From: Escherichia virus TH41
Strand: one strand, 5' to 3'
Sequence record: MT446412.1
DNA: 64,000 nucleotides
The position numbers were made by a program, and so were the translations under genes. Of this stretch, positions 2,879-49,610 are shown piece after piece (position 1 is the first letter of the stretch; every line of letters begins with the position of its first letter). The notes under the pieces were generated by a model. The model did no database searches. It saw only the letters and a program-made list of their open reading frames with translations, and was not told where the DNA came from.

Positions 2879-3574
2879 ATGAAATTCTCTAAAGACACTA
2901 TCGCAGTTCTGAAAAACTTCACCTCCATTTACTCTGGCATTATGCTTAAGCCGGGTAATACCATCCTGACTCGTTCTGTAACCGGAGCGTCATATGGTGA
3001 ATCTGAAATCAATGATACAATCGACTTTGAAGCTGCAATTTATGACCTGAACGGCTTCTTAAGTATCCTGGGTCTGGTAACTGACCAAGCTGAAGTATCT
3101 CTGGCTGAAGATGCATCGAATATCATTATCAAAGACCAACGTTCAACGATTCACTGGCCTGCAGCTGACCCGAGCACTATCGTGTTCCCTGCTAAGAAGA
3201 TTCCTTTCCCGGTAGCTAAGGTTATCTTCGACCTGAAAGGTAGTGACCTGCAGCAGCTTCTGCGTGTGGCTGGTGGGTTGTCTCTGGATACTTTTGCAAT
3301 CACCAACAAAGACGGTAAGATTGTTATCCATGGTTATAACCAGCTCGAAGATAAAGAATTAGCACGCCCATTGTATTCCCTGGTGTGTGGCGATTACGAA
3401 GGCGATGCAGCGTTTAAATTTATCATTAACAAACTGAACATGAAAATGATTCCGGCTGATTACCGTGTTATGCTTTGGGCGAAAGATGATAAATTTGCTA
3501 CGAAGTTTGAAGGCACACAAGCAAGCTATGTGATTGCAATGGAACAAGGCTCTAGCCACGAATTCCAAGATTAA
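2879..3574 (+). CDS. 45: sliding clamp gp45
   Basis: 231 aa; N-terminus MKFSKDTIAVLKNFTSIYSGIMLK and later blocks closely match T4 gp45. Confidence 0.93.
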   Translation: MKFSKDTIAVLKNFTSIYSGIMLKPGNTILTRSVTGASYGESEINDTIDFEAAIYDLNGFLSILGLVTDQAEVSLAEDASNIIIKDQRSTIHWPAADPSTIVFPAKKIPFPVAKVIFDLKGSDLQQLLRVAGGLSLDTFAITNKDGKIVIHGYNQLEDKELARPLYSLVCGDYEGDAAFKFIINKLNMKMIPADYRVMLWAKDDKFATKFEGTQASYVIAMEQGSSHEFQD

Positions 3575-3577
3575 TAA

Positions 3578-3595
3578 ATGGGGCTTCGGCCCCAT
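3578..3595 (+). other. TTCG-tetraloop hairpin without U-tract (intercistronic 45/44)
   Basis: ATGGGGC-TTCG-GCCCCAT inverted repeat just after gene 45 stop. Confidence 0.4.
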
Positions 3596-3632
3596 GGAGT
3601 ACAAAGTAGAAACTAATATGAGGAAAATAATA

Positions 3633-4610
3633 ATGGCAACAGTAATTAACGGTTTGACAGTCAACGAATCCGACTTCATGTGGGAACAAAAATACCGCCC
3701 AGGTACATTATCAGAGTGTATTCTCCCGGCCCATGATAAAGAAACATTAGAGGCGATTGTTAAAAAAGGTTTGATTCCTAACTTGATTCTGGTCAGTAGT
3801 TCCCCTGGTACTGGTAAGACAACAGTTGCAAAAGCTATGTGTGCAGATACGAATTCTGATATGCTGTTTGTTAACGGCTCCGATTGCCGAATTGACTTTG
3901 TGCGTAATGAATTGACTCGCTTTGCATCATCCAAATCAATCGAAGGTCGCCGCAAGGTAATCGTTATCGATGAGTTTGACCGTGCAGGTCTGGCTGAATC
4001 ACAACGGCACCTCCGTAGCTTTATGGAAGCTTATTCGAGTAACTGTTCAATCATTATGACCGCGAACAATATTGATGGCATCATCACTCCGTTGCAGTCT
4101 CGTTGTCGCGTCATTAAGTTCGGTGAAGCAACTCCGGCTGACCAGACTACCATGATGAAAGAGATGATTCATCGTGCAGTTGCGGTATGTAAAAATGAAG
4201 GCGTTGAAATCGAAGACCTGAAAGTTGTTGCTGCTCTGGTTAAGCATAACTTCCCGGACCTGCGTAAGACAATTAACGAGCTTGACCGTTACTCTGCAAA
4301 GGGTGTTATCGATTCTGGTATTCTGAGTATCGTGACAAACAATCGCACGCCAATTGATGATGTGATTGATGCCCTTAAGGACCGTAATTTTAAAGTTCTC
4401 CGTGGTCTGGCTCCTAAGCATGCAAATGATTATTCAAGCTTCATTGCAAAGCTGGCTGATGAAATGTATGGCAAACTGACTGGTGCAAGTATCATCCGCA
4501 TGTATGAGATTGTAGGTGAGAATAATCAGTATCATGGCATTGCGGCCAATACCGAAGTTCACTTGACTTATCTGTTTGCTCAACTGGCTGGGGAAATGAA
4601 ATGGCTGTAA
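3633..4610 (+). CDS. 44: clamp loader large subunit gp44
   Basis: ATG at 3633 after AGGAAAA RBS; P-loop SPGTGKTT; AAA+ clamp-loader blocks near-identical to T4 gp44. Confidence 0.93.
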   Translation: MATVINGLTVNESDFMWEQKYRPGTLSECILPAHDKETLEAIVKKGLIPNLILVSSSPGTGKTTVAKAMCADTNSDMLFVNGSDCRIDFVRNELTRFASSKSIEGRRKVIVIDEFDRAGLAESQRHLRSFMEAYSSNCSIIMTANNIDGIITPLQSRCRVIKFGEATPADQTTMMKEMIHRAVAVCKNEGVEIEDLKVVAALVKHNFPDLRKTINELDRYSAKGVIDSGILSIVTNNRTPIDDVIDALKDRNFKVLRGLAPKHANDYSSFIAKLADEMYGKLTGASIIRMYEIVGENNQYHGIAANTEVHLTYLFAQLAGEMKWL

Positions 4611-5179
4611 GTCTCTTTGATGATGACGTTCAATTAAACGAACATGAGGTTGCGTGGAAATCACGCGACTTTAACAAAATTCAGGAATTGTCCGATTCAT
4701 ACAAAGAGAAAGCAGAAAATGAATTGTTCGCGATTCTTAACGACATAACCGTTAGCAAAAAACCACGGAACCTGATTCAATCGGAAAACTACAATAAATT
4801 CTGGCTGGATAACGCATTGAGTCAACATGTTGATTGCATCATGCAGGTGAACGTGATGAACTTAATCGGTTCCGGGTTAACAGACCAGCAGCATTATAAT
4901 TATTTGCTGCATGCAGTTCCGCAAGGTAAGCGTTACGGCAAATGGGCGAAGGCTGAACCGGATGTAGTCAACGTCCAGCTTGTGCTCAAGCTTTTAATGA
5001 AATATTATACAATTAATGCAGATGATGCTTTGATGTATATGGAAACATTGAAAGTCAAAGGTAGTCTTAAAGATGTTTTGAAAAAGACAAAAGGTCTGGT
5101 AACGGATGAATTCTTAAAGACCGTTACCAGTAATGTGAAAGAACAAAAAGAAATTAAAAAACAAATATTGGAATGGTAA
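4601..5179 (+). CDS. 62: clamp loader small subunit gp62
   Basis: 192 aa, start overlaps gp44 stop; size and position as T4 gp62. Confidence 0.85.
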   Translation: MAVSLFDDDVQLNEHEVAWKSRDFNKIQELSDSYKEKAENELFAILNDITVSKKPRNLIQSENYNKFWLDNALSQHVDCIMQVNVMNLIGSGLTDQQHYNYLLHAVPQGKRYGKWAKAEPDVVNVQLVLKLLMKYYTINADDALMYMETLKVKGSLKDVLKKTKGLVTDEFLKTVTSNVKEQKEIKKQILEW

Positions 5180-5180
5180 A

Positions 5181-5549
5181 ATGATTGAAATTACATTAAA
5201 GCAACCTGAAGACTTCCTGAAAGTTAAAGAAACTCTGACCCGTATGGGCATCGCAAATAATAAAGACCGTGTGCTGTACCAGAGCTGCCACATCCTCCAA
5301 AAGCAAGGTCGTTATTATATTGTTCACTTCAAAGAAATGCTGCGCATGGATGGTCGTCAGGTTGATATTGACGGTGAAGACTATCAGCGCCGTGATTCCA
5401 TCGCCCAACTGCTTGAAGACTGGGGCTTAATCGCTATCAAAGAAGAAGAGCATAATGAATTGTTCGCAGTAACAAATAACTTCCGTGTTATTTCATTCAA
5501 ACAAAAAGACGACTGGAAGCTCGTAGCCAAATATACAATTGGTAATTGA
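5181..5549 (+). CDS. regA: translational repressor RegA
   Basis: 122 aa; MIEITLK..VLYQSCHILQK..FRVISFKQK..KYTIGN matches T4 RegA. Confidence 0.93.
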   Translation: MIEITLKQPEDFLKVKETLTRMGIANNKDRVLYQSCHILQKQGRYYIVHFKEMLRMDGRQVDIDGEDYQRRDSIAQLLEDWGLIAIKEEEHNELFAVTNNFRVISFKQKDDWKLVAKYTIGN

Positions 5550-5550
5550 T

Positions 5551-5766
5551 ATGAAGCATGAAATTGAAACATGTGAACGCCTTAAAGAAGTATATGGACT
5601 TTCCCCAACTCAAACTATTTTTGACCTTTCCGAAGAACTTCAAATAGAATTTCAAAAGGAACTCAATAAATTATTGCATCCTGGACAGAGAGTCTTCCAG
5701 GCTATGGTTAGAACTAAAGATGAAAATGGTAATCCGACCATCGAACGTCGTACAATAGAAATTTAA
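5551..5766 (+). CDS. hypothetical protein (71 aa)
   Basis: ORF 5539..5766 with ATG at 5551 directly after regA stop. Confidence 0.5.
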   Translation: MKHEIETCERLKEVYGLSPTQTIFDLSEELQIEFQKELNKLLHPGQRVFQAMVRTKDENGNPTIERRTIEI

Positions 5767-5771
5767 AGCAA

Positions 5772-5790
5772 AGGGACTTCGGTCCCTTTT
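5772..5790 (+). terminator. intrinsic terminator (TTCG tetraloop)
   Basis: GGGAC-TTCG-GTCCC followed by TTTT; a TATAAT follows at about 5795. Confidence 0.7.
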
Positions 5791-5851
5791 GTAGTATAAT
5801 AGCGTCAAGTCATAAAACAAAAGTCAATCACTCGACTATAAAGGAAATCAA

Positions 5852-8566
5852 ATGCAAGAATTTTATTTAACTATCGAACAAATCGGTGACAACCTACTCG
5901 AACGATATATTGACAAGAATGGTCATGAACGTGTTCGTGAAATCCCTTATGCTCCATGCTTGTTTATGCACGCCCGCGAAGACCAAGCTGCAAAGTATAC
6001 AGACATCTATAATAAAGGTTGTGTGAAAAAAGAATTCGATTCCATGCGTGATGCATCCCAGTGGATGAAGCGAATGAATGACATGGGTCTCGAAGCTATG
6101 GGTATGGACGACTTTAAACTCGCATACTTGTCCGACCGTTACCCACACGAAATCAAATATGATTCAAGTAAAATCCGTGTTGCTAACTTCGATATCGAGG
6201 TGACATCTCCTGATGGGTTCCCTGAACCGTCTGAAGCACGTCACCCTATTGACGCCCTGACGCACTATGATTCGGTAGACGATAAATTCTATGTCTTTGA
6301 CCTTTTGGGCTCACCATACGCCACTGTGGAGCAATGGTCTATTGATATTGCTGCTAAGCTGCAGGAAGACGGTGGTGATGAAGTCCCGGAAGAAATCCTG
6401 GAAAAAATTGTTTATATGGCTTTCGATTCAGAAGAAGAAATGCTCCAGCAGTATTTGGTATTCTGGAACGAGAAAACTCCGGTTATGTTAACTGGTTGGA
6501 ACATCGAGAAGTTTGATATTCCATATATCTACAACCGCCTTAAAAATGTATTTGGTGAAGCTACAGCAAAACGTCTGAGCCCACATCGTCGTACAAAAGT
6601 TAAGGTCATTAACAACGGCTTTGGCGAAGAACAAGAAATCATTCAGATTCTGGGTATCTCTGTTCTGGATTATCTGGACCTGTATAAAAAGTTCAGCTTC
6701 ACAAACCAACCGTCTTATTCGTTGGATTATGTTGCGGAATCTGAACTGGGTGTTGGTAAACTCCCGTATGATGGCCCGATTTCTAAACTGCGCGAATCAA
6801 ATCACCAGCGGTATATTTCTTATAACATCATCGACGTTTATCGTGTTGTGCAGATTGACCGTAAGCGACAGTTTATTAACCTGAGTCAGTCAATGGGTTA
6901 TTACGCAAAAATGCAGATTCAGTCTGTATTCAGCCCAATCAAAACTTGGGATGCGATTATCTTTAACAGCTTGAAGACTCAAAACAAAGTTATTCCGGAA
7001 ACCAAATCGCATGTTCGCCAATCGTTCCCTGGTGCATTTGTTAAGGAACCTATTCCGAACGCATACAAATATGTAATGAGCTGTGACTTAACATCTCTGT
7101 ATCCGAGCATCATCCGACAGATTAACATCAGTCCAGAAACGATTGCCGGGTCATTTGCGCCAGCCCAGATGTATGAATACATCGCAGGAACTGCTGACCG
7201 TCCATCTGATACATTTAGTTGTGCTCCAAATGGTATGATGTATTTTAAAGATGTTGCGGGTATTATTCCGACAGAAGTCACCAAGGTGTTTAATCAGCGT
7301 AAAGAGCACAAAGGCTATATGCTTGCGGCTCAACGTAATGGTGAACTGATTAAGGAAGCTCTGCGTAATCCAGGAACTGGCACAACCGAACCAGAAGTTG
7401 ATTATCGTCATGACTTTGATGACAATATGAAAACGGCCCTGCATGGTCTGAATCAAACAGTCCTAAATGGTATGCTGTACAAAGCGCAGATGGAAGAAGT
7501 TGCAGGCATGACCGCACAGATTAACCGTAAACTGCTTATCAACAGTTGTTATGGCGCTCTGGGTAATATCTGGTTCCGTTACTTTGACCTGCGAAATGCA
7601 ACCGCGATTACATCTTTCGGACAACTTGCACTGCAGTGGATTGAGCGTAAAGTTAACGAATACTTCGATAGTGTTTGTGGTACAAGCGGTGAAACTTATG
7701 TGTTCTATGGCGATACTGACTCCATTTATATCCAGTGCGATAACCTGATTAAAAAGGTTGGTGGCGAATCTAAATTCCGCGATACAAACCACCTGGTTGA
7801 CTTCATGGACAAGTTTGCGAAAGACCGTCTGGAACCGGCAATCGATAAAGCTTTCCGTGAGCTGGCTGAATACATGAACAACAAACAGCACCTTATGTTT
7901 ATGGACCGTGAGGCGATTGCATGTCCTCCGCTGGGTTCGAAGGGTGTGGGTGGATTCTGGACGGCGAAGAAGCGTTATGCGTTGAACGTGTACGATATGG
8001 AAGGCACACGTTATGCTGTTCCAAAATTGAAAATCATGGGTCTGGAAACTCAAAAGTCGAGTACTCCAAAGGCATGTCAGAAAGCTCTGAAAGAATGCAT
8101 CCGCCGTATGCTGCAAGAAGGTGAAGAATCTCTGCAGACATACTTCAAGGAATTCAATAAGGAATTTAATGAGCTTAACTACATGACCATCGCAGGGGTA
8201 TCATCGGTTAACAACATCCAGAAATATAATGAAGGTGGTTTCCCTGGATTTAAGTGCCCGGCTCATATCAAAGGTGTGCTTGCATATATGCGTGCAACTA
8301 AAGGTCTGAAGACTGTTCCGCAAATCATGGAAGGGGAAAAGGTGTATGTACTTCCTCTTAAAGTCGGCAACCCATTTGGTGAAACCGTGATTGCATGGCC
8401 ATCAGGGATTGAACTCCCGATTGAAATTCGTGACCAAGTCTTGCAGTGGATGGACTACAACACACTGTTCCAGAAGACTTTTGTCAAACCGTTAACAGGT
8501 TTCTCTGAAGCTGCAAAGGTTGATTACGAAAAGAAAGCAACTCTTTTTGATATGTTTGACTTTTAA
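5852..8566 (+). CDS. 43: DNA polymerase gp43 (family B)
   Basis: 904 aa; exonuclease and polymerase motifs (FDIE, YGDTDS); C-terminal clamp-binding tail TLFDMFDF. Confidence 0.95.
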   Translation: MQEFYLTIEQIGDNLLERYIDKNGHERVREIPYAPCLFMHAREDQAAKYTDIYNKGCVKKEFDSMRDASQWMKRMNDMGLEAMGMDDFKLAYLSDRYPHEIKYDSSKIRVANFDIEVTSPDGFPEPSEARHPIDALTHYDSVDDKFYVFDLLGSPYATVEQWSIDIAAKLQEDGGDEVPEEILEKIVYMAFDSEEEMLQQYLVFWNEKTPVMLTGWNIEKFDIPYIYNRLKNVFGEATAKRLSPHRRTKVKVINNGFGEEQEIIQILGISVLDYLDLYKKFSFTNQPSYSLDYVAESELGVGKLPYDGPISKLRESNHQRYISYNIIDVYRVVQIDRKRQFINLSQSMGYYAKMQIQSVFSPIKTWDAIIFNSLKTQNKVIPETKSHVRQSFPGAFVKEPIPNAYKYVMSCDLTSLYPSIIRQINISPETIAGSFAPAQMYEYIAGTADRPSDTFSCAPNGMMYFKDVAGIIPTEVTKVFNQRKEHKGYMLAAQRNGELIKEALRNPGTGTTEPEVDYRHDFDDNMKTALHGLNQTVLNGMLYKAQMEEVAGMTAQINRKLLINSCYGALGNIWFRYFDLRNATAITSFGQLALQWIERKVNEYFDSVCGTSGETYVFYGDTDSIYIQCDNLIKKVGGESKFRDTNHLVDFMDKFAKDRLEPAIDKAFRELAEYMNNKQHLMFMDREAIACPPLGSKGVGGFWTAKKRYALNVYDMEGTRYAVPKLKIMGLETQKSSTPKACQKALKECIRRMLQEGEESLQTYFKEFNKEFNELNYMTIAGVSSVNNIQKYNEGGFPGFKCPAHIKGVLAYMRATKGLKTVPQIMEGEKVYVLPLKVGNPFGETVIAWPSGIELPIEIRDQVLQWMDYNTLFQKTFVKPLTGFSEAAKVDYEKKATLFDMFDF

Positions 8567-42717: not shown

Positions 42718-42993
42718 ATGACTAAATTTGAAATCGTTTCTGAAATTGTTACTATAACTTCAATTTTGATTAAAACCGACCGGGAAGATATTACGATGAA
42801 GCGCGATGTGTTTATCGCGTTTTTGAATGAGTTGGGATTGAGAAATGAGAATGGGAATGAGTTAAACAATGTATCGTTTAACAAGTTGTTTAAAAGTTTA
42901 TCTGAAGATGAAATTGAACAAATTATTGAACAATTTAACGAAGGATTCGAAGATATACACCGTTATCTTATGATGTATACCTCCGGATTCTAA
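42718..42993 (+). CDS. asiA: anti-sigma-70 factor AsiA
   Basis: 91 aa; ITSILIK..REDI..FIAFLNE..QFNEGFEDIHRYLMMYT matches T4 AsiA. Confidence 0.85.
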   Translation: MTKFEIVSEIVTITSILIKTDREDITMKRDVFIAFLNELGLRNENGNELNNVSFNKLFKSLSEDEIEQIIEQFNEGFEDIHRYLMMYTSGF

Positions 42994-43643
42994 CGTGTAC
43001 GCCCAAGCGTACGACCTGCTTGTCCACACATAGAAGAAAGCCTATCAAAACCAAGGTCGGGTTTTTGCTTATACCAGTACAGTGAGACTGTGCCTGCATA
43101 AACGTTTTCCAAATTAAAGAATGGGCAGCTGAACATATATGTGAAGCTGCTTTTTTTCTTTGTTGGTAAGAATACAGATTCCACACTGGATTCAAAATAA
43201 TTACCATTAACCCCCGCCAAATATTCCGCTGAAGTCTTATCTATTGGAAACCCACCTAAATTTTTTTCGTCGACTGTATCAGGCAATATCCCCTCGTAAC
43301 CCACCATATCCACAAAGTAGTTAAGGTTAGTTGGCCTAAAAGAATATATTGCTGTAAAGTCTGCCCCACTTGACGAGTGGACTATCTGGATTTGCTCGAT
43401 AGCTGCAATTTTAAATCTGTTATCCTGGTCTTGCCTTATCATTTCAGTGTATGAGGCATATGAAGCATCCCTGTACGCATCTAAAAGTGCATCACCTTTA
43501 TACCAGATTACCGCCATTAAAAATAATAGAACAATAACTAGTACCCGGGAAAAAACAACTTTCCCGGTCGCATTATCTTTAAAAATTCTATCAAGAAGTC
43601 CAAAAAGTAGGTCGGGTATTGATATTCCTACTTTTGGTTCCAT
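42990..43643 (-). CDS. t: holin T
   Basis: 217 aa; LLFGLLDRIFKDNATGKV, single TM and large periplasmic domain blocks match T4 holin. Confidence 0.9.
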   Translation of the reverse strand: MEPKVGISIPDLLFGLLDRIFKDNATGKVVFSRVLVIVLLFLMAVIWYKGDALLDAYRDASYASYTEMIRQDQDNRFKIAAIEQIQIVHSSSGADFTAIYSFRPTNLNYFVDMVGYEGILPDTVDEKNLGGFPIDKTSAEYLAGVNGNYFESSVESVFLPTKKKSSFTYMFSCPFFNLENVYAGTVSLYWYKQKPDLGFDRLSSMCGQAGRTLGRTR

Positions 43644-43662
43644 ACTTTTCTCCTTTAAAGAT

Positions 43663-43670
43663 ATTTATAG
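43663..43670 (-). promoter_or_regulatory. late promoter TATAAATA for t
   Basis: TATTTATA on + strand, 20 nt upstream of the t start. Confidence 0.5.
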
Positions 43671-43680
43671 CGCTTATGTA

Positions 43681-44460
43681 CTATAACCATGAGCCGTAAA
43701 TTGTGCCTGTAGCACCCCATGATGGGGAGGAACCGAATACTGCTCTACCAGGAGCACCACCACCCGACCTGGATAAGTTATTACCCCATCCATTGCCACC
43801 AGCGCCTCCAGCATCACCGCCATTGCCACCGCCAAATTGGCTTGCATTACCACCGCCACCTGGACCATCATAACTAGCATTGCCGCCTGGCCAATTAACA
43901 CCACCGCCGCCGAGACCAAATGGTCTGCCGCCACCGCCACCTGCTGTAGCATTTGCAGGCCAACTATTCTGTAATGATGCGGCACCGCCGCCACCACCAC
44001 CGGAGGCTATCACACCATAATTCCAAATGCGAAGTCGTCCACCAATATCATTTTGGATTACGTCACCACCATTAGTGCCCGGGCTTCCATTTACTGTACC
44101 GTTGCCACCTCGGCCCCACATATGAACACCACCATGAATATTCAAAGTAACATATTCGTTAGGGGTATCACCGTACATAAAGAACAACGGAACATCTTTA
44201 GTATATGATACTAAGTTGCCTGTGATATTAAACACTATAGGAGCACCGCCGGCTTCAAAGCAACGGTCTCTAAACCATTGCCCGTTAAAGTTGTGGTCCG
44301 CACCAAGTGTGTGAATAATCTCACGGGACCGACCAGCAAATTGCGACATTGATACCGGTAGTCCCAATCTTAACTGTCCAGCCGCTGCAGACATCCATCG
44401 CTGGCCTGTTTCAGCCACTGCTGATGTTCCAATCCAACCAGGAATTCCTACTACTGCCAT
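43681..44460 (-). CDS. 38: long-tail-fibre tip adhesin gp38 (T2 type, glycine-rich)
   Basis: 259 aa; conserved N-terminus [15 protein letters not shown]...[19 protein letters not shown] and C-terminal polyglycine tracts. Confidence 0.8.
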
Positions 44461-44470
44461 AAAAACCTCC

Positions 44471-44486
44471 AGGGCCCGAAGGCCCT
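44471..44486 (-). other. TTCG-tetraloop hairpin between genes 37 and 38
   Basis: On - strand AGGGCC-TTCG-GGCCCT then GGAGG and TTTTT before the gp38 ATG. Confidence 0.4.
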
Positions 44487-44489
44487 TTC

Positions 44490-47400
44490 TTATAATAATG
44501 ATTTAATTAATGCTTTCAACTCAGCAATTTCAGATTTCAATTCCTTGATTTCGTCAGTATGCTCGTTGATAGTAGCAGTATTTAAACCGATAATACCGTT
44601 ATAGTTTAAACGAAGTAAGCCGGTCTCTTTATCTTCAGTCACAAGTTCAGGCAATACTTCTTGAACTTCCTGAGCAATTAAACCAGCAGACGGTTTAACT
44701 TCATCTGTGACAGAGTTTTTAAGCAGATAAGTATAACCGCCTAAGAGTTTAGATTTCTCTTGGGCATTTTCTATAAGCTTAATTTCTGACTTACAGCGAA
44801 TATCAGAACGGATATAAACGTCGTTAACATCGATGTTGTCACGAACATACATACCGGCGTTAACGTTTAGAAACTTATTTTGCTCGGTCGTAATACCGCC
44901 AGCTTCCCAGAAAAATACACTCTGCGCATTAGCATACGCGCCTAGACTACCATCACCTCTAGTAGCAAGACCTGTATCGTTATCGCCAATAGCAATAGAA
45001 GCATTTGGTAATGAACATGATGTACCAATGCCCATTCGAGACGCAGCATTCAAAGCATTAGGGGCGGTTAAGGTGCCGTCGGCGCCAAAAACGTATATCG
45101 CATTAGGATGGCTTGCATCGCCGCTTTCAGCAGAACCCACACGAATAACAGCAGAACCCCAGGTAGCCGCTCCACCTAATCGAATAATACCGAAGTCTGC
45201 TTTAGTAGAATATCCTTCAGTAGCTAGAGTGCTTTTTCCTTTGATAATTGGCATATAACTATCTTTAGGAACGGATTCACCAAAGTCAACGAAATAAGGA
45301 GCTTCTGTTTGCCATTGGTTTCCGTAACCATGACCTTGAGTATTAACCCATGCTCGACCGTTAACATACATGCGATAATAATTCATTTGCATTGCCAGAC
45401 CAGCACCAGAAAGGTCTACGTTGAATTCACCGTTATTGGTGATATACAGGCCACAGTTAGTAGCATAGCTGTAAAGGCCTATTCCATTATCGCTGCCACC
45501 TTTACCGACATACCAGTTGCCGGTACCATTTACATCAGAACGGATATGTGAACTATTACCTGTAGTTGTTCTTAATACTAAAGCATCACCAGGGGCTTCT
45601 ATTGTCAGCTTGCCTGTCATTGTATCGCCTTCTTTAGCAACACGAGTAGCAATGGCATCGCGAATATTAGTTACATCGCCTGCTGAAGTAAACGTTTTCC
45701 AAATATCGGACCAGATATTACCATTTCGGGCAATAGTAGCTTCACCACCACCAACCTGCACGTTATCGGGGAAGTTAACTGTACCATCGGCATTAAATCT
45801 TGAGGTATGACCTTCGGTCCCGTCTTCTTTAAGATGGTGTAAAACAAAAGTCCCGGAATTAATTTCAGTACCTAAAGACCAAACAGCTTTTCCTTGTAAG
45901 AATTTCTGCTTAACAATAGGATAATATTTACTTACTGCGGCATCATCAATTTCTTGGAAAATAGGAGCTGCTTGTGCATATTGAATATCGTAACCGCCTG
46001 CACCAGCCCCATGACCAACAAATTTAATATAGCCGTTTGCTGCGAACGTATTGTAACTTGATTGTAAATCTGGAATAGTAACTTTACCAGTATCTAAAGC
46101 CATACTAAATGGGCGAAGTGGACCGATATCACCGCCCTGTCCTTCACCAAACGCTGTAGGAATAATATGAAGACTTCCTTCTGAGCGACGGAAAATAGCA
46201 CCGTAATCGTCGTTCCAAATTCTAAGGGCATTAACAGCATTACCTGCAATTTCACCATGTGCGCTGATTGTACCATCAAATGTAGCATTTTTTACTACGG
46301 TCAGGTTTTCATTAACAATCTGGGAGCCATTTAGAACCGATTCGACTTTACCAGCAGTTGTTCGTTGAATATATTGCATCCAGCTAGTAGCATCAGATAT
46401 TTCCATTACGTTTTTGCGAGTACCGTCTACAGTGGTAAAAGTATCGCCCCAAACGCGTATATTCATATTATCGACAGAGCTTTGACCAGACGTATAGCTA
46501 CTAAACAGTAAGGTTGAAGCATTACTGCGGCCGTCGATATTAATTAAACCGCCAATCACATCGATATTACCCGGAGTAACCAACAAACCACCCGTGGTGT
46601 TAATGTTTGTAGTGCCTTTACCACGAAAATAGTGGTGATATGCTCCACCTTGATAATATCCTAAAAGAGTTTGTCCATCACCGAAGGCATTATTATCATG
46701 ATAAGTAACAACGGTACCAAGCGCATAGTTTTCTGTCGGCGGCGTAGTTAAATCGTTACCGTTTACAGAATAACCCATGACCATTTTTCTAAGGCTTACA
46801 GTTGATTCAGGGCTGTAAAGGAAAGTTCTCGTACCATTGTTTACTGCATAGAAATAACCATCTTGGTACCATTTTAACCCGGTGTCATTATCACCAAGAG
46901 CAATAGAACCCTTACCTAAGGCTGAATATGTCATAGGCCCTGATTCCATACCCACTGCAATCGAATGTCCAGCTTGAAAACCACCTGAATAAGCAAAAGA
47001 TAACATATAATCAGTAGGGGTTGAACCAGAATACCAACTGATACCGTTATTTTCACAAATTTCATGGAGCATTGCGGCGGCTGCATCAGTACGCACAACA
47101 CGTAAATTATTTTTATCTGTGTTAGAATTATTATTTGCTAATGAATAGATATCATAATCACCAGCTTTCTTACCATTTGTAATAACTTTATCAGTCAGAA
47201 TTTGTGGGGATGAAATAGATTTCCATGCTGATACTTCAGGTGAAGTAAATTGACCATTGCCTGAAAACGCGTAAGTGCTTTCGCTACCAGCGGCATAATC
47301 TTGCACTCGTATATTAACTACCTGAGTTGTCAAACCCGCATTGTTAGGAGAAAAGATAATACCGCGTTCGCGTGATGCACCATCAAAAAAACGAAGATGC

Positions 47401-47756
47401 GAAGTCGATGCACTCTTAGAAATAAGTTCACCACCTTCAGTCATTATCTGACCCGCGGCAATAATATCGCGAGCTACACGAGCAATGCCGGTTAAATTAA
47501 AATCACCAGTTTGGGTAAAAGTACCATTCAGGGTATAATCACCAGTTTGATTGTAATTACCGTTATGAATAACATTACCATCAATATTACCGCCTTTGGC
47601 AAAACCAAGGTCGATAATGGCGCCGGTGTCATCTTTAGTAAAAAGTAAGCGGTCTTTCAGGTTGATAGCCAGTTCACCTTCAGCAAGAACTGTTGGCGCC
47701 GGACGAACGCCGGCAACCTTACTTCTTTTAAATTGTATTTGTTTTAAAGTAGCCAT
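44490..47756 (-). CDS. 37: long tail fibre distal subunit gp37 with C-terminal intramolecular chaperone domain
   Basis: 1088 aa fibrous ORF between 36 and 38; last about 105 aa [14 protein letters not shown]...coiled coil resemble autoproteolytic chaperone modules. Confidence 0.85.
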
Positions 47757-47764
47757 AATGCCTC

Positions 47765-48412
47765 TTAATAATATCCAAAATCTTGTACGGAGTCTTTAAG
47801 AACGATTTGGTCAAAACGAGGCACATGGGCCGGGTCTGATGCTGGGTTCCTAGAGAAGAAATTAGGTGCTGACAAGTTACCTGTCATTGTTTGCAATGTA
47901 CTATTATTTAGTTCTACCTGTTGCTGGTTAGTTACATTACCAAGACCAACTTGAGCTTTTGACGGAGTATTCCCTGGAGAAAATACACGACCTGTTTCAT
48001 CATAAATTTGTCGAGCTAACGTATCACCCATAACAGTAAGACGTTTTGCTCCTGTCGTAGTATCAGGGTCAAAAATAACAAATGGTGTTCCCGTTTCAGT
48101 CTCAAATCCGAATGGTCCTTTAATACGGAAAGATGCTGTAAATGGTGTTCCGCCTGTTCTTGCTCCTAACTTAATCCCGTAACCATTTGAATCGTTAAAT
48201 GTCAGACCCTGTTCGAAATACACATTTGCTTTATAATTACCACCCAGAGCTTTAGAAACAAAATCGTTATCGACTGCTTGTGGCTTGTTATATTCGGAAT
48301 AAATTTTATAAGTTTTGAAATATAAGTCATTACTGACTGGTGTTAATGGGAAATTACCCTGGTGCCAGAGGACCGAACCTCCGGCTGTTGAGCCTAGTTT
48401 TAAATCTGCCAT
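47765..48412 (-). CDS. 36: long tail fibre subunit gp36
   Basis: 215 aa; position between 35 and 37; late promoter upstream. Confidence 0.75.
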   Translation of the reverse strand: MADLKLGSTAGGSVLWHQGNFPLTPVSNDLYFKTYKIYSEYNKPQAVDNDFVSKALGGNYKANVYFEQGLTFNDSNGYGIKLGARTGGTPFTASFRIKGPFGFETETGTPFVIFDPDTTTGAKRLTVMGDTLARQIYDETGRVFSPGNTPSKAQVGLGNVTNQQQVELNNSTLQTMTGNLSAPNFFSRNPASDPAHVPRFDQIVLKDSVQDFGYY

Positions 48413-48447: not shown

Positions 48448-48455
48448 TATTTATA
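48448..48455 (-). promoter_or_regulatory. late promoter TATAAATA for gene 36
   Basis: TATTTATA on + strand about 36 nt upstream of the gp36 start. Confidence 0.45.
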
Positions 48456-48458
48456 ACG

Positions 48459-48480
48459 AAAAAAGGACTCCGAAGAGTCC
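48459..48480 (-). terminator. intrinsic terminator after gene 35
   Basis: On - strand GGACTC-TTCG-GAGTCC followed by TTTTTT; overlaps the gp35 stop. Confidence 0.6.
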
Positions 48481-49610
48481 TATTGTTTTTCTCGTAGTTC
48501 GGCTGCGTATATCTTGCCGGCTCTTGGAGCTTGCGCATCCGGGAATGTTACAATTGTATTGCCTGTATTTGTTGCATCGTTTGCATATGACATCCTTATG
48601 CCGTTGACACCAAATTCAGCCGGTTTGAACGCAGAGTCACCTCTGGTTATCTCACCAATAACAATATTGCGTATTGACCCAGTTCCGGTAGCTACAGTTC
48701 TTGATGTTACTACTGTAAAGCCATCAGCTCCTGGCGGAATCTCGACATATCTTTCGAAACTCGCCCAAGCCCCGGCAGGAATGTTTGCTGCGATATCGAT
48801 GTTTGTATTTGATATCGGCGAAGTGCTGGGGCTTTTAAAGAATCGAACCGAAGTCCTTACGGTCCCCGCAGCTTTCAGTGCAGCGTCAAATGACATCTGA
48901 AACTTCAAGTAAAGCACATCCAAAGGTAAAAGGTTATAGGTGTCCATAGGAGTCACCAGGTCCTCTGTGGGGAACCTTTTAATTGTGGTTGATGTTCCAT
49001 CACCTGTTGATGAATACGTGCTCTCGTCTTCCGTTATGCGTACAGGATAGCCTGTTGCTCCTATATCACTAAAGGTATCATAAATGACTTCAAGCGGAGT
49101 CGAAACATCCTCAACTAACTTCCCGTCATTATACTTAACATGCTCCGAAACAATTACATTCCGGCCGGTTATGTAAAAAGCCGAGTACGATGTATCAACT
49201 TTATCAATCAGCCATTTATCTGGGAATGCTCTTGAACCACATTTACGGAACCAATCAATTAATGGCTGTGATGCGTTTAGTTTCCCTGAAGAAATAAAAG
49301 CAATCAATCTTCCGGCTGGAACAGATTCCACAAAGGTGATTAATGCCTGACTGATTGCATCATGTGTGCTAGTTAATGAATAGTTTTTCGTGTTAACAAT
49401 TTTATTCGTAGTTGTATCAATTTCCAATAGAGTCAGACCATTACCAAAAGTAGTTGGTCCAATTCGTTCATCCTGAAATTTGATATACGATTTCACCGTG
49501 GAAAGAGTACAGCTCCCTGCTATACTCATTTTAAATTTAACGGCATTATTTTCTGATATAACTGGCGTTTGGACGTATCCTTGTCCAAACTCTGCCATAA
49601 ATTTTTCCAT
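48480..49610 (-). CDS. 35: long tail fibre hinge subunit gp35
   Basis: 376 aa; position and size as T4 gp35. Confidence 0.7.
   Translation of the reverse strand: MEKFMAEFGQGYVQTPVISENNAVKFKMSIAGSCTLSTVKSYIKFQDERIGPTTFGNGLTLLEIDTTTNKIVNTKNYSLTSTHDAISQALITFVESVPAGRLIAFISSGKLNASQPLIDWFRKCGSRAFPDKWLIDKVDTSYSAFYITGRNVIVSEHVKYNDGKLVEDVSTPLEVIYDTFSDIGATGYPVRITEDESTYSSTGDGTSTTIKRFPTEDLVTPMDTYNLLPLDVLYLKFQMSFDAALKAAGTVRTSVRFFKSPSTSPISNTNIDIAANIPAGAWASFERYVEIPPGADGFTVVTSRTVATGTGSIRNIVIGEITRGDSAFKPAEFGVNGIRMSYANDATNTGNTIVTFPDAQAPRAGKIYAAELREKQ

Follow-up and report, generated by a model that had tools for sequence, protein, structure and literature searches.

In phage S16 (PDB 6F45; Dunne et al. 2018, via PMC6851490), gp38 is built of an N-terminal three-helix attachment domain, a five-ringed β-helix and a three-layered "polyglycine sandwich", in which hypervariable loops link ten glycine-rich motifs (GRMs); receptor binding is proposed to take place at the five distal loops (PMC6851490). 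Each of the three attachment helices has a conserved tryptophan, and the gp37 trimer receives these residues in three equivalent pockets (PMC6851490). Once S16 gp37 has trimerized, its chaperone domain is removed by autocleavage at DLNVS^SDRRIKK, which bares the docking surface for gp38 (PMC7917993). The receptor of S16 is Salmonella OmpC (PMC12892980). Earlier genetic work had divided gp38 into five GRMs and four hypervariable segments (HVSs), with the HVS block conferring receptor specificity (PMC3157838). Here we analyze genes 37 and 38 of Escherichia virus TH41, which lie in a 64,000-nucleotide (nt) stretch of sequence record MT446412.1; this whole stretch is hereafter called the window, and all coordinates refer to it at its full length. 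We hold with very high confidence that this locus of a Gaprivervirus/Dhakavirus-like T-even coliphage encodes the end of the long tail fiber, of T2 type (S16 type), that recognizes the receptor. The module as such is already known: it is a standard, characterized T2/S16-type tip, and near-identical relatives are public.

Two neighboring open reading frames (ORFs) on the minus strand, of 259 amino acids (aa; 43681-44460) and 1088 aa (44490-47756), were taken from the ORF list. The span initially singled out (43681-44810) covers gp38, the spacer of 29 nt that separates it from gene 37, and the end of gene 37 from the codon of R983 through residues 984-1088 to the stop codon. The two genes are as follows:

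43681..44460, minus strand: gene 38, encoding the gp38 adhesin (receptor-recognizing protein), 259 aa, 25.8 kDa, stop codon at 43681-43683; assigned from the ORF, Pfam, PHROG, PDB and the structure model.
44490..47756, minus strand: gene 37, encoding the long tail fiber distal subunit, 1088 aa, stop codon at 44490-44492; assigned from the ORF and PHROG 1699.

The preliminary description had called gp38 a T2-type adhesin, and the family searches agree. The protein matches Pfam GP38 (PF05268) with an E-value of 8.8e-82 and 274.6 bits (cut-off 25) over the complete profile (1-218/218), and its residues 1-42 match Pfam Gp38_N (PF21721; E 1.4e-17, 63.8 bits, cut-off 25). It also matches PHROG 2056, "tail fiber protein; host specificity", with an E-value of 1e-106. 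In a PDB sequence search the receptor-binding domain of PP01 gp38 (9v85) was found with an E-value of 4e-73, and S16 gp38 (6f45_D) was matched over nearly its full length (E 2e-48). An AlphaFold2 model, for which 78 sequences were used, has a mean predicted local distance difference test (pLDDT) score of 86.7, with low confidence for residues 1-19, and a Foldseek search of the PDB with this model (E <= 0.001) returned 9v85 and 6f45_D only. The model superimposes on 9v85_C with a root-mean-square deviation of 1.5 Å and template-modeling (TM) scores of 0.79 by query length and 0.92 by target length; the corresponding TM scores for 6f45_D are 0.80 and 0.84. By sequence and predicted fold, gp38 thus belongs to the T2/S16-type adhesin family. 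The pattern at this locus goes far beyond what chance would give: the matches to Pfam GP38, Gp38_N and, in gp37, Peptidase_S74 all pass the curated cut-offs. Additionally, gp38 was aligned with the adhesins of T2 (53% identity overall) and S16 (46-50%).

For the conservation analysis, 118 homologues drawn from a search of 5.8 billion proteins were aligned and column entropies were computed. The resulting subdivision of gp38 is given below, where the domain assignment of residues 46-115 was taken from the description of S16 (PMC6851490):

44326..44460, minus strand: residues 1-45, N-terminal attachment domain (Gp38_N), predicted to dock on the gp37 tip and carrying W9, W22 and S37.
44116..44325, minus strand: residues 46-115, conserved N-terminal part of the central β-helix (entropy 0.81 bits; strands with pLDDT >90).
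43741..44115, minus strand: residues 116-240, specificity region, delimited by the glycine runs, the entropy profile and the S16 alignment.
43684..43740, minus strand: residues 241-259, conserved C-terminal strands closing the β-helix (entropy 0.95 bits; strands 241-255 in the model).

Of all gp38 residues, 26% are glycine, and the stretch from position 110 to 259 (150 residues) contains 55 glycines. The runs are GGGGGG (154-159), GGGGG (174-178), GGGG (184-187 and 201-204), GGGNGG (210-215), GGAGG (218-222) and GGG (233-235). A conserved N-terminus, polyglycine tracts and variable loops between them had been proposed from the sequence, and the entropy profile bears out each of these parts: residues 1-115 are conserved (0.8-0.9 bits), the two longest glycine tracts are nearly invariant (mean 0.03 bits), and the segments 160-173, 188-200, 205-209 and 223-232, which lie between tracts, are variable (1.6-2.5 bits). 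Insertions in other gp38 proteins fall mostly in these inter-tract segments and around residues 111-153. In our own reading of the alignment to S16, which sets the segment boundaries, ten glycine-rich segments can be counted (116-121, 128-132, 154-159, 174-178, 184-187, 191-193, 201-204, 210-215, 218-222 and 233-235), and the variable loops between them are 122-127, 160-173, 188-200, 205-209 and 223-232. This layout of glycines and loops agrees with the published descriptions (PMC3157838, PMC6851490). That such loops are the likely determinants of host range, as had been supposed for gp38, is the established view of the family (PMC3157838, PMC6851490, PMC12032242) and fits the entropy profile.

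Several additional ORFs of 52-108 aa were observed over the glycine-rich part of gene 38, namely 43674-44000 (minus strand), 43703-43873 (plus strand, proline-rich) and 43719-43877 (plus strand). Repeated GGN codons, when read out of frame or from the complementary strand, probably give rise to them as artefacts.

The distal subunit gp37 matches PHROG 1699, "long tail fiber protein distal subunit", with an E-value of 0. Its last roughly 105 residues had been likened to the self-cleaving chaperone domains of tail spikes and fibers, and this assignment was confirmed by family, homologue and fold. Residues 984-1040 match Pfam Peptidase_S74 (PF13884, "Chaperone of endosialidase") with an E-value of 3.9e-12 and 46.7 bits (cut-off 22), and among the matches listed this domain is present in 119 of 120 homologues of the C-terminal fragment. 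Since the motif SDIRCK begins at S984, the C-terminal piece is exactly 105 residues long. The elements of this end of gp37 are:

44493..44807, minus strand: residues 984-1088, intramolecular chaperone (Peptidase S74), 105 aa, 11.6 kDa; assigned from Pfam, conservation and fold.
44805-44807, minus strand: codon of S984, the predicted catalytic serine.
44790-44792, minus strand: codon of K989, the predicted catalytic lysine.
44808..44822, minus strand: residues 979-983 (DVYIR), the predicted last strand of the mature protein and part of the gp38 docking surface, from motif comparison.

In the PDB sequence search, residues 915-1087 match the S16 gp37 construct (6f45_A; E 2e-33), and the last 126 residues alone match the C-terminus of S16 gp37 with an E-value of 6e-24. 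In an alignment of 125 homologous C-termini, the SDxxxK motif is nearly invariant (S984 in 122, D985 in 121 and K989 in 122 of them). A monomer model of residues 900-1088 has a pLDDT of 80.7 overall and of about 89-98 within the chaperone domain, which closes with a long C-terminal helix (1052-1087). The best fold matches of this model in the PDB are the MyRF ICA domain (7dc3; TM 0.53/0.71), the K1F endosialidase chaperone 3gw6 (probability 1.0), to which the chaperone domain is only 11-13% identical in sequence, and the S16 gp37 tip.

Farther upstream in the fiber, gp37 residues 444-550 (46107-46427 in the window) match the C-terminal trimerization domain of gp34 (Pfam Gp34_trimer, E 2e-7; PDB 4uxe and 5nxf, E about 1e-15). 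At the level of sequence this is a fiber-shaft module common to the proximal (gp34) and distal (gp37) half-fibers.

The T2-type processing site that had been expected in gp37 can be placed by alignment. The junction in the window, DVYIR/SDIRCKS, corresponds to NVYIR/SDIRLKS in T2, DVYIR/SDSRLK in T6 and DVYVR/SDIRVK in RB69; it aligns with the S16 cleavage site and with DVYIR^SDGRLKI, the junction predicted for the Yersinia fPS phages (PMC7917993), and cleavage is therefore predicted between R983 and S984. Cleavage at this bond would give a mature gp37 (1-983) of 104.8 kDa and a released fragment of 11.6 kDa from a full chain of 116.5 kDa (computed masses). The spacing of S984 and K989 (Ser-x4-Lys) is that of Ser1264 and Lys1269 in T5 pb1, where the bond N-terminal to the serine is cut and the substitution S1264A abolishes auto-proteolysis (PMC4690869). 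The chaperones of T5 pb1 and of the K1F endosialidase (3GW6) are likewise C-terminal, carry a lysine five residues after the serine, are cut N-terminal to the serine and, like the domain in the window, finish in a helix or coiled coil. The T5 pb1 chaperone is longer, however (133 residues versus 105; PMC4690869), and whereas removal of the domain merely completes an enzymatic or receptor-binding tip in K1F endosialidase and T5 pb1, in the TH41 fiber it would create the docking site for a separate adhesin. In 6f45 the gp37 construct was deposited with 204 aa, and the modeled chains have just 68-72 residues, which fits the loss of the chaperone domain in S16 gp37. It is important to mention that Arg983 precedes the scissile serine, and trypsin cannot reveal the autocleavage site, as it would leave the same terminus with or without autocleavage.

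Two other explanations concern the roles of gp37 and gp38. The C-terminal domain of gp37 could be an inactive relic that stays uncleaved on the mature fiber, and the unusual cysteine at position 988, where most homologues have leucine, could be seen as a sign of this. We consider it very improbable, as the serine, aspartate and lysine of SDxxxK are all present and near-invariant in the family, and processed relatives have the identical junction. For T2 gp37, processing was reportedly first described by Drexler et al. in 1986, which also speaks against a relic; the fragment removed from the T2 protein is said to be of about 120 residues. A chaperone left in place, moreover, would cover the gp38 docking surface (PMC7917993). 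The other explanation takes gp38 for a mere assembly factor of gp37 as in T4, absent from the virion, with host recognition residing in gp37 itself. In several database records, among them those of RB69, T6 and JS98, the orthologue does carry the name "distal long tail fiber assembly catalyst", and the first 60 residues of gp38 match, besides PHROG 2056, a second PHROG family (phrog_1121). These labels in older records are legacy names, as is stated in the RB69 record itself, whose note calls the unrelated "gp38" of the T2 subfamily the adhesin. The sequence and fold of gp38 are those of an adhesin, whereas T4 gp38 is very different in sequence (PMC6851490), and the virions of T6 gene 38 amber mutants, though normally shaped, do not adsorb (PMC3157838). 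In gp37, a search of the full protein against the PDB (E <= 0.01) returned the S16 gp37 tip and T4 gp34 fragments only, with T4 gp37 chains absent; the end of the protein is formed by a cleavable chaperone domain and not by a receptor-binding needle. The T4-type arrangement, in which gp37 bears its own tip and gp38 is a chaperone only, was rejected on these grounds, and we regard it as extremely improbable. By homology to the T2/S16-type fibers, gp38 would sit in the virion at the fiber tip, presumably as one copy per gp37 trimer.

The domains of gp38 and gp37 were compared with their counterparts in other phages. Residues 1-45 of gp38 are 82-87% identical to T6, M1 and FL34 versus 51% to RB69, which has another attachment subtype and also another pre-cleavage gp37 tip. 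In the specificity region (116-240), by contrast, the identity is 90% to RB69 and 85% to FL34, versus 58% to T2 and 50% to T6 and M1. By sequence, gp38 is thus mosaic, its attachment domain being of the T6 type (82% identity to T6) and its specificity domain of the RB69 type. For the gp37 chaperone domain, the identity is about 60% to RB69 and AR1 versus 29% to T6. An RB69-like chaperone is therefore found together with a T6-like attachment domain, and the pre-cleavage tip between them resembles neither subtype beyond DVYIR; a "lock-and-key" pairing of subtypes (PMC3157838) is not obvious in the window.

The loop sequences of gp38 in RB69 (Mosigvirus) and FL34 are nearly the same as in TH41. 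RB69 needs OmpF, together with FhuA and the full lipopolysaccharide (LPS) core (PMC3157838), and FL34 depends on OmpF and TolC (PMC12032242). As noted by Lutz et al., gp38 proteins that are close relatives have their receptor in common. Since the specificity region is most similar to these two OmpF-dependent phages, our best guess for the receptor of TH41 is OmpF, which we consider probable but not secure, because single loop substitutions switch receptors in the gp38 family. It is quite possible, if not the expectation, that the module is as described and binds something else, be it FadL, OmpC, OmpA, Tsx, or an LPS or O-antigen structure. The gp38 proteins of SV76 and T2 differ by single-residue changes in two loops, and SV76 uses OmpF, FhuA and LPS whereas T2 uses FadL (PMC3157838). 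The window differs from RB69 and FL34 by N223 and other loop substitutions, amounting to one to four residues in every loop (e.g., NASQF versus YTSQF, and another loop versus DGWGNHLSRS), and the loops of T2 are recognizably of the same type. Furthermore, the tree of Lutz et al. covers Tequatrovirus, Mosigvirus and Krischvirus, and neither Gaprivervirus nor Dhakavirus is included in it. On the other side, the closest gp38 proteins with experimentally tested receptors are those of RB69 and FL34, and the adhesins for Tsx, OmpA and OmpC (T6, M1, FL08, AV119, AR1 and S16) are just 47-53% identical in the specificity region and have unrelated loops.

Two database irregularities were observed among the gp38 homologues. 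The annotated proteins of FL34 (positions 1501-2313 of locus L002) and of Bp7 diverge abruptly from their relatives near the C-terminus, starting at about residue 236 and about residue 223, respectively, which suggests frameshifts in the records, as sequencing errors or as real changes. In addition, Peptidase_S74, Gp38_N and GP38 are all present in a single 303-aa database protein from an E. coli assembly (P0079); the call appears to extend from the gene 37 end into gene 38 and is likely an artefact of gene calling or assembly.

A few points weigh against our interpretation of the locus as an S16-like tip with OmpF as receptor. Cleavage, location in the virion and receptor are extrapolated by homology from other phages. 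The call of OmpF is weak, as a few loop substitutions can switch the receptor, as in SV76 and T2, and about 10% of the positions of the specificity region differ between the window and RB69. Except for its final strand, the pre-cleavage gp37 tip aligns poorly with those of T6, T2, RB69 and S16 (12-32% identity). Finally, the prong anchor described for S16 gp38 is altered: of the three anchoring tryptophans, the window retains W9 and W22, and the third position is Ser37 (codon at 44350-44352).

Position 37 is occupied by tryptophan in 99 of the 118 homologues, by tyrosine in 12, by serine in 5 and by asparagine in 2, and we regard Ser37 as a minor variation within the family that does not imply a different mechanism; the tryptophan prongs have been described as highly conserved but not as a strict hallmark of these adhesins. 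The window (S37), phage UGJNEcP3 (W37) and a metagenomic contig (S37), whose gp38 also has serine at the second tryptophan position (S22), agree in all of the last 19 residues of mature gp37. No covariation of Ser37 with the gp37 tip was thus found over these 19 residues. As the same tip occurs with a W37 or an S37 partner, the third prong may be dispensable in this lineage.

The closest record to the locus is ECML-359 (OL631482, Gaprivervirus), one of the phages in an E. coli cocktail (PMC6219645), which is 99.8% identical over 4.2 kb of DNA; positions 3045-7165 of its locus (L001) correspond to 43644-47764 of the window. Genes 37 and 38 are unannotated in this record, which has 170 features in 169 kb. 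Six of the eight nucleotide differences are clustered in 96 bp in the 3' end of gene 38 (43699-43794): four are synonymous and fall within 16 bp, and two are adjacent, at codon 223. This cluster looks like a small recombination patch rather than scattered point mutation. The only amino-acid changes are N223A in gp38, where the last variable loop begins, and A95T in gp37. The gp38 of UGJNEcP4 is 95% identical to that of the window and is annotated as a host-specificity tail fiber protein, as is the 259-aa gp38 at the same position in UGJNEcP3. EAWsc9, which belongs with ECML-359, UGJNEcP3 and UGJNEcP4 to the Gaprivervirus/Dhakavirus group, has an RB69-type gp37 tip and attachment domain. Among the more distant systems, S16 shares with the window the gene order, the cleavable gp37 chaperone with SDxxxK and the three-part plan of gp38 (helical attachment domain, β-helix and polyglycine sandwich), but its gp37 is shorter (749 aa) and its chaperone domain is of 112-113 residues. 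The classical T2 is alike in architecture and nearly the same at the cleavage junction; it differs in the length of gp37 (1341 aa) and of the predicted chaperone domain (99 residues).

The genes around the tip are arranged in the order g36-g37-g38-t, and the layout around g37, g38 and t is the same in RB69, T2, T6 and S16. Two ORFs of 376 and 1318 aa farther upstream have sizes that fit gp35 and gp34. The neighboring genes and the candidate expression signals are listed below:

47765..48412, minus strand: gene 36, distal hinge connector, 215 aa (PHROG 1425, E 9.5e-57); upstream neighbor in what would be the same late transcription unit.
42990..43643, minus strand: gene t, holin, 217 aa (Pfam Phage_holin_T, E 1.8e-66); downstream neighbor.
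48448-48455, minus strand: TATAAATA, candidate late-promoter motif upstream of gene 36, from a motif scan.
43662-43669, minus strand: TATAAATA, between gene 38 and t and directly upstream of t, from the same scan.
44471..44486, minus strand: intercistronic hairpin AGGGCC-UUCG-GGCCCU, between the stop codon of gene 37 and the Shine-Dalgarno sequence (GGAGG) of gene 38.

We take TATAAATA to be the T4 late-promoter consensus. Its sites are merely suggestive of late promoters, because the eight copies in the window only slightly exceed the 4.5 expected by chance. Hairpins of the type C(UUCG)G have long been known in T4 intercistronic regions, and a hairpin is found at the same position between g37 and g38 in RB69, T2, T6, S16 and AR1, its stem showing compensatory changes. 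The case for it rests on this positional conservation and on the compensatory changes, because the 81-nt segment, taken as a whole, folds with an ordinary energy (z = -0.8). A second stable hairpin with a UUCG loop was observed at 48464-48481 (minus strand), a short distance upstream of the TATAAATA site that precedes gene 36. Searches of the whole window with Rfam (gathering thresholds) and with a tRNA scan gave no matches.

The mechanism that we propose for TH41 follows the S16 scheme. Genes 36, 37 and 38 would be expressed late, and gp37 (1088 aa) would trimerize with the aid of its own C-terminal intramolecular chaperone of 105 residues. Once the triple β-helix is folded, Lys989 would activate Ser984 and the R983-S984 bond would be cut, freeing the 11.6-kDa chaperone and baring a flat gp37 tip that ends in DVYIR. 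A single gp38 (259 aa) would then dock on this tip via its N-terminal helical attachment domain. The rest of gp38 would form a small β-helix and a polyglycine sandwich, with about ten glycine-rich segments as polyglycine II (PGII) helices, and the distal variable loops joining these helices would bind a host outer-membrane protein, most likely the porin OmpF, judging from the similarity to RB69 and FL34.

In practical terms, the analysis provides the annotation of two genes that the ECML-359 record leaves blank, an explicit predicted cleavage site with fragment masses, and the prediction of OmpF as receptor, and the mapped codons of the exchangeable loops may be useful for re-targeting TH41. 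The scientific gain is small, as the T2/S16-type tip is well understood both genetically and structurally. Since the window has only two tryptophan prongs, and the metagenomic relative apparently one, the docking of gp38 on the threefold-symmetric gp37 tip is perhaps more asymmetric and more tolerant than the S16 structure suggests, an idea that we put forward as unlikely though worth stating. If it were true, two-prong docking, together with the mosaic build of gp38 and the N223A difference from ECML-359, could make this locus suitable as a natural test of the contacts that count in adhesin exchange and in fine host range.

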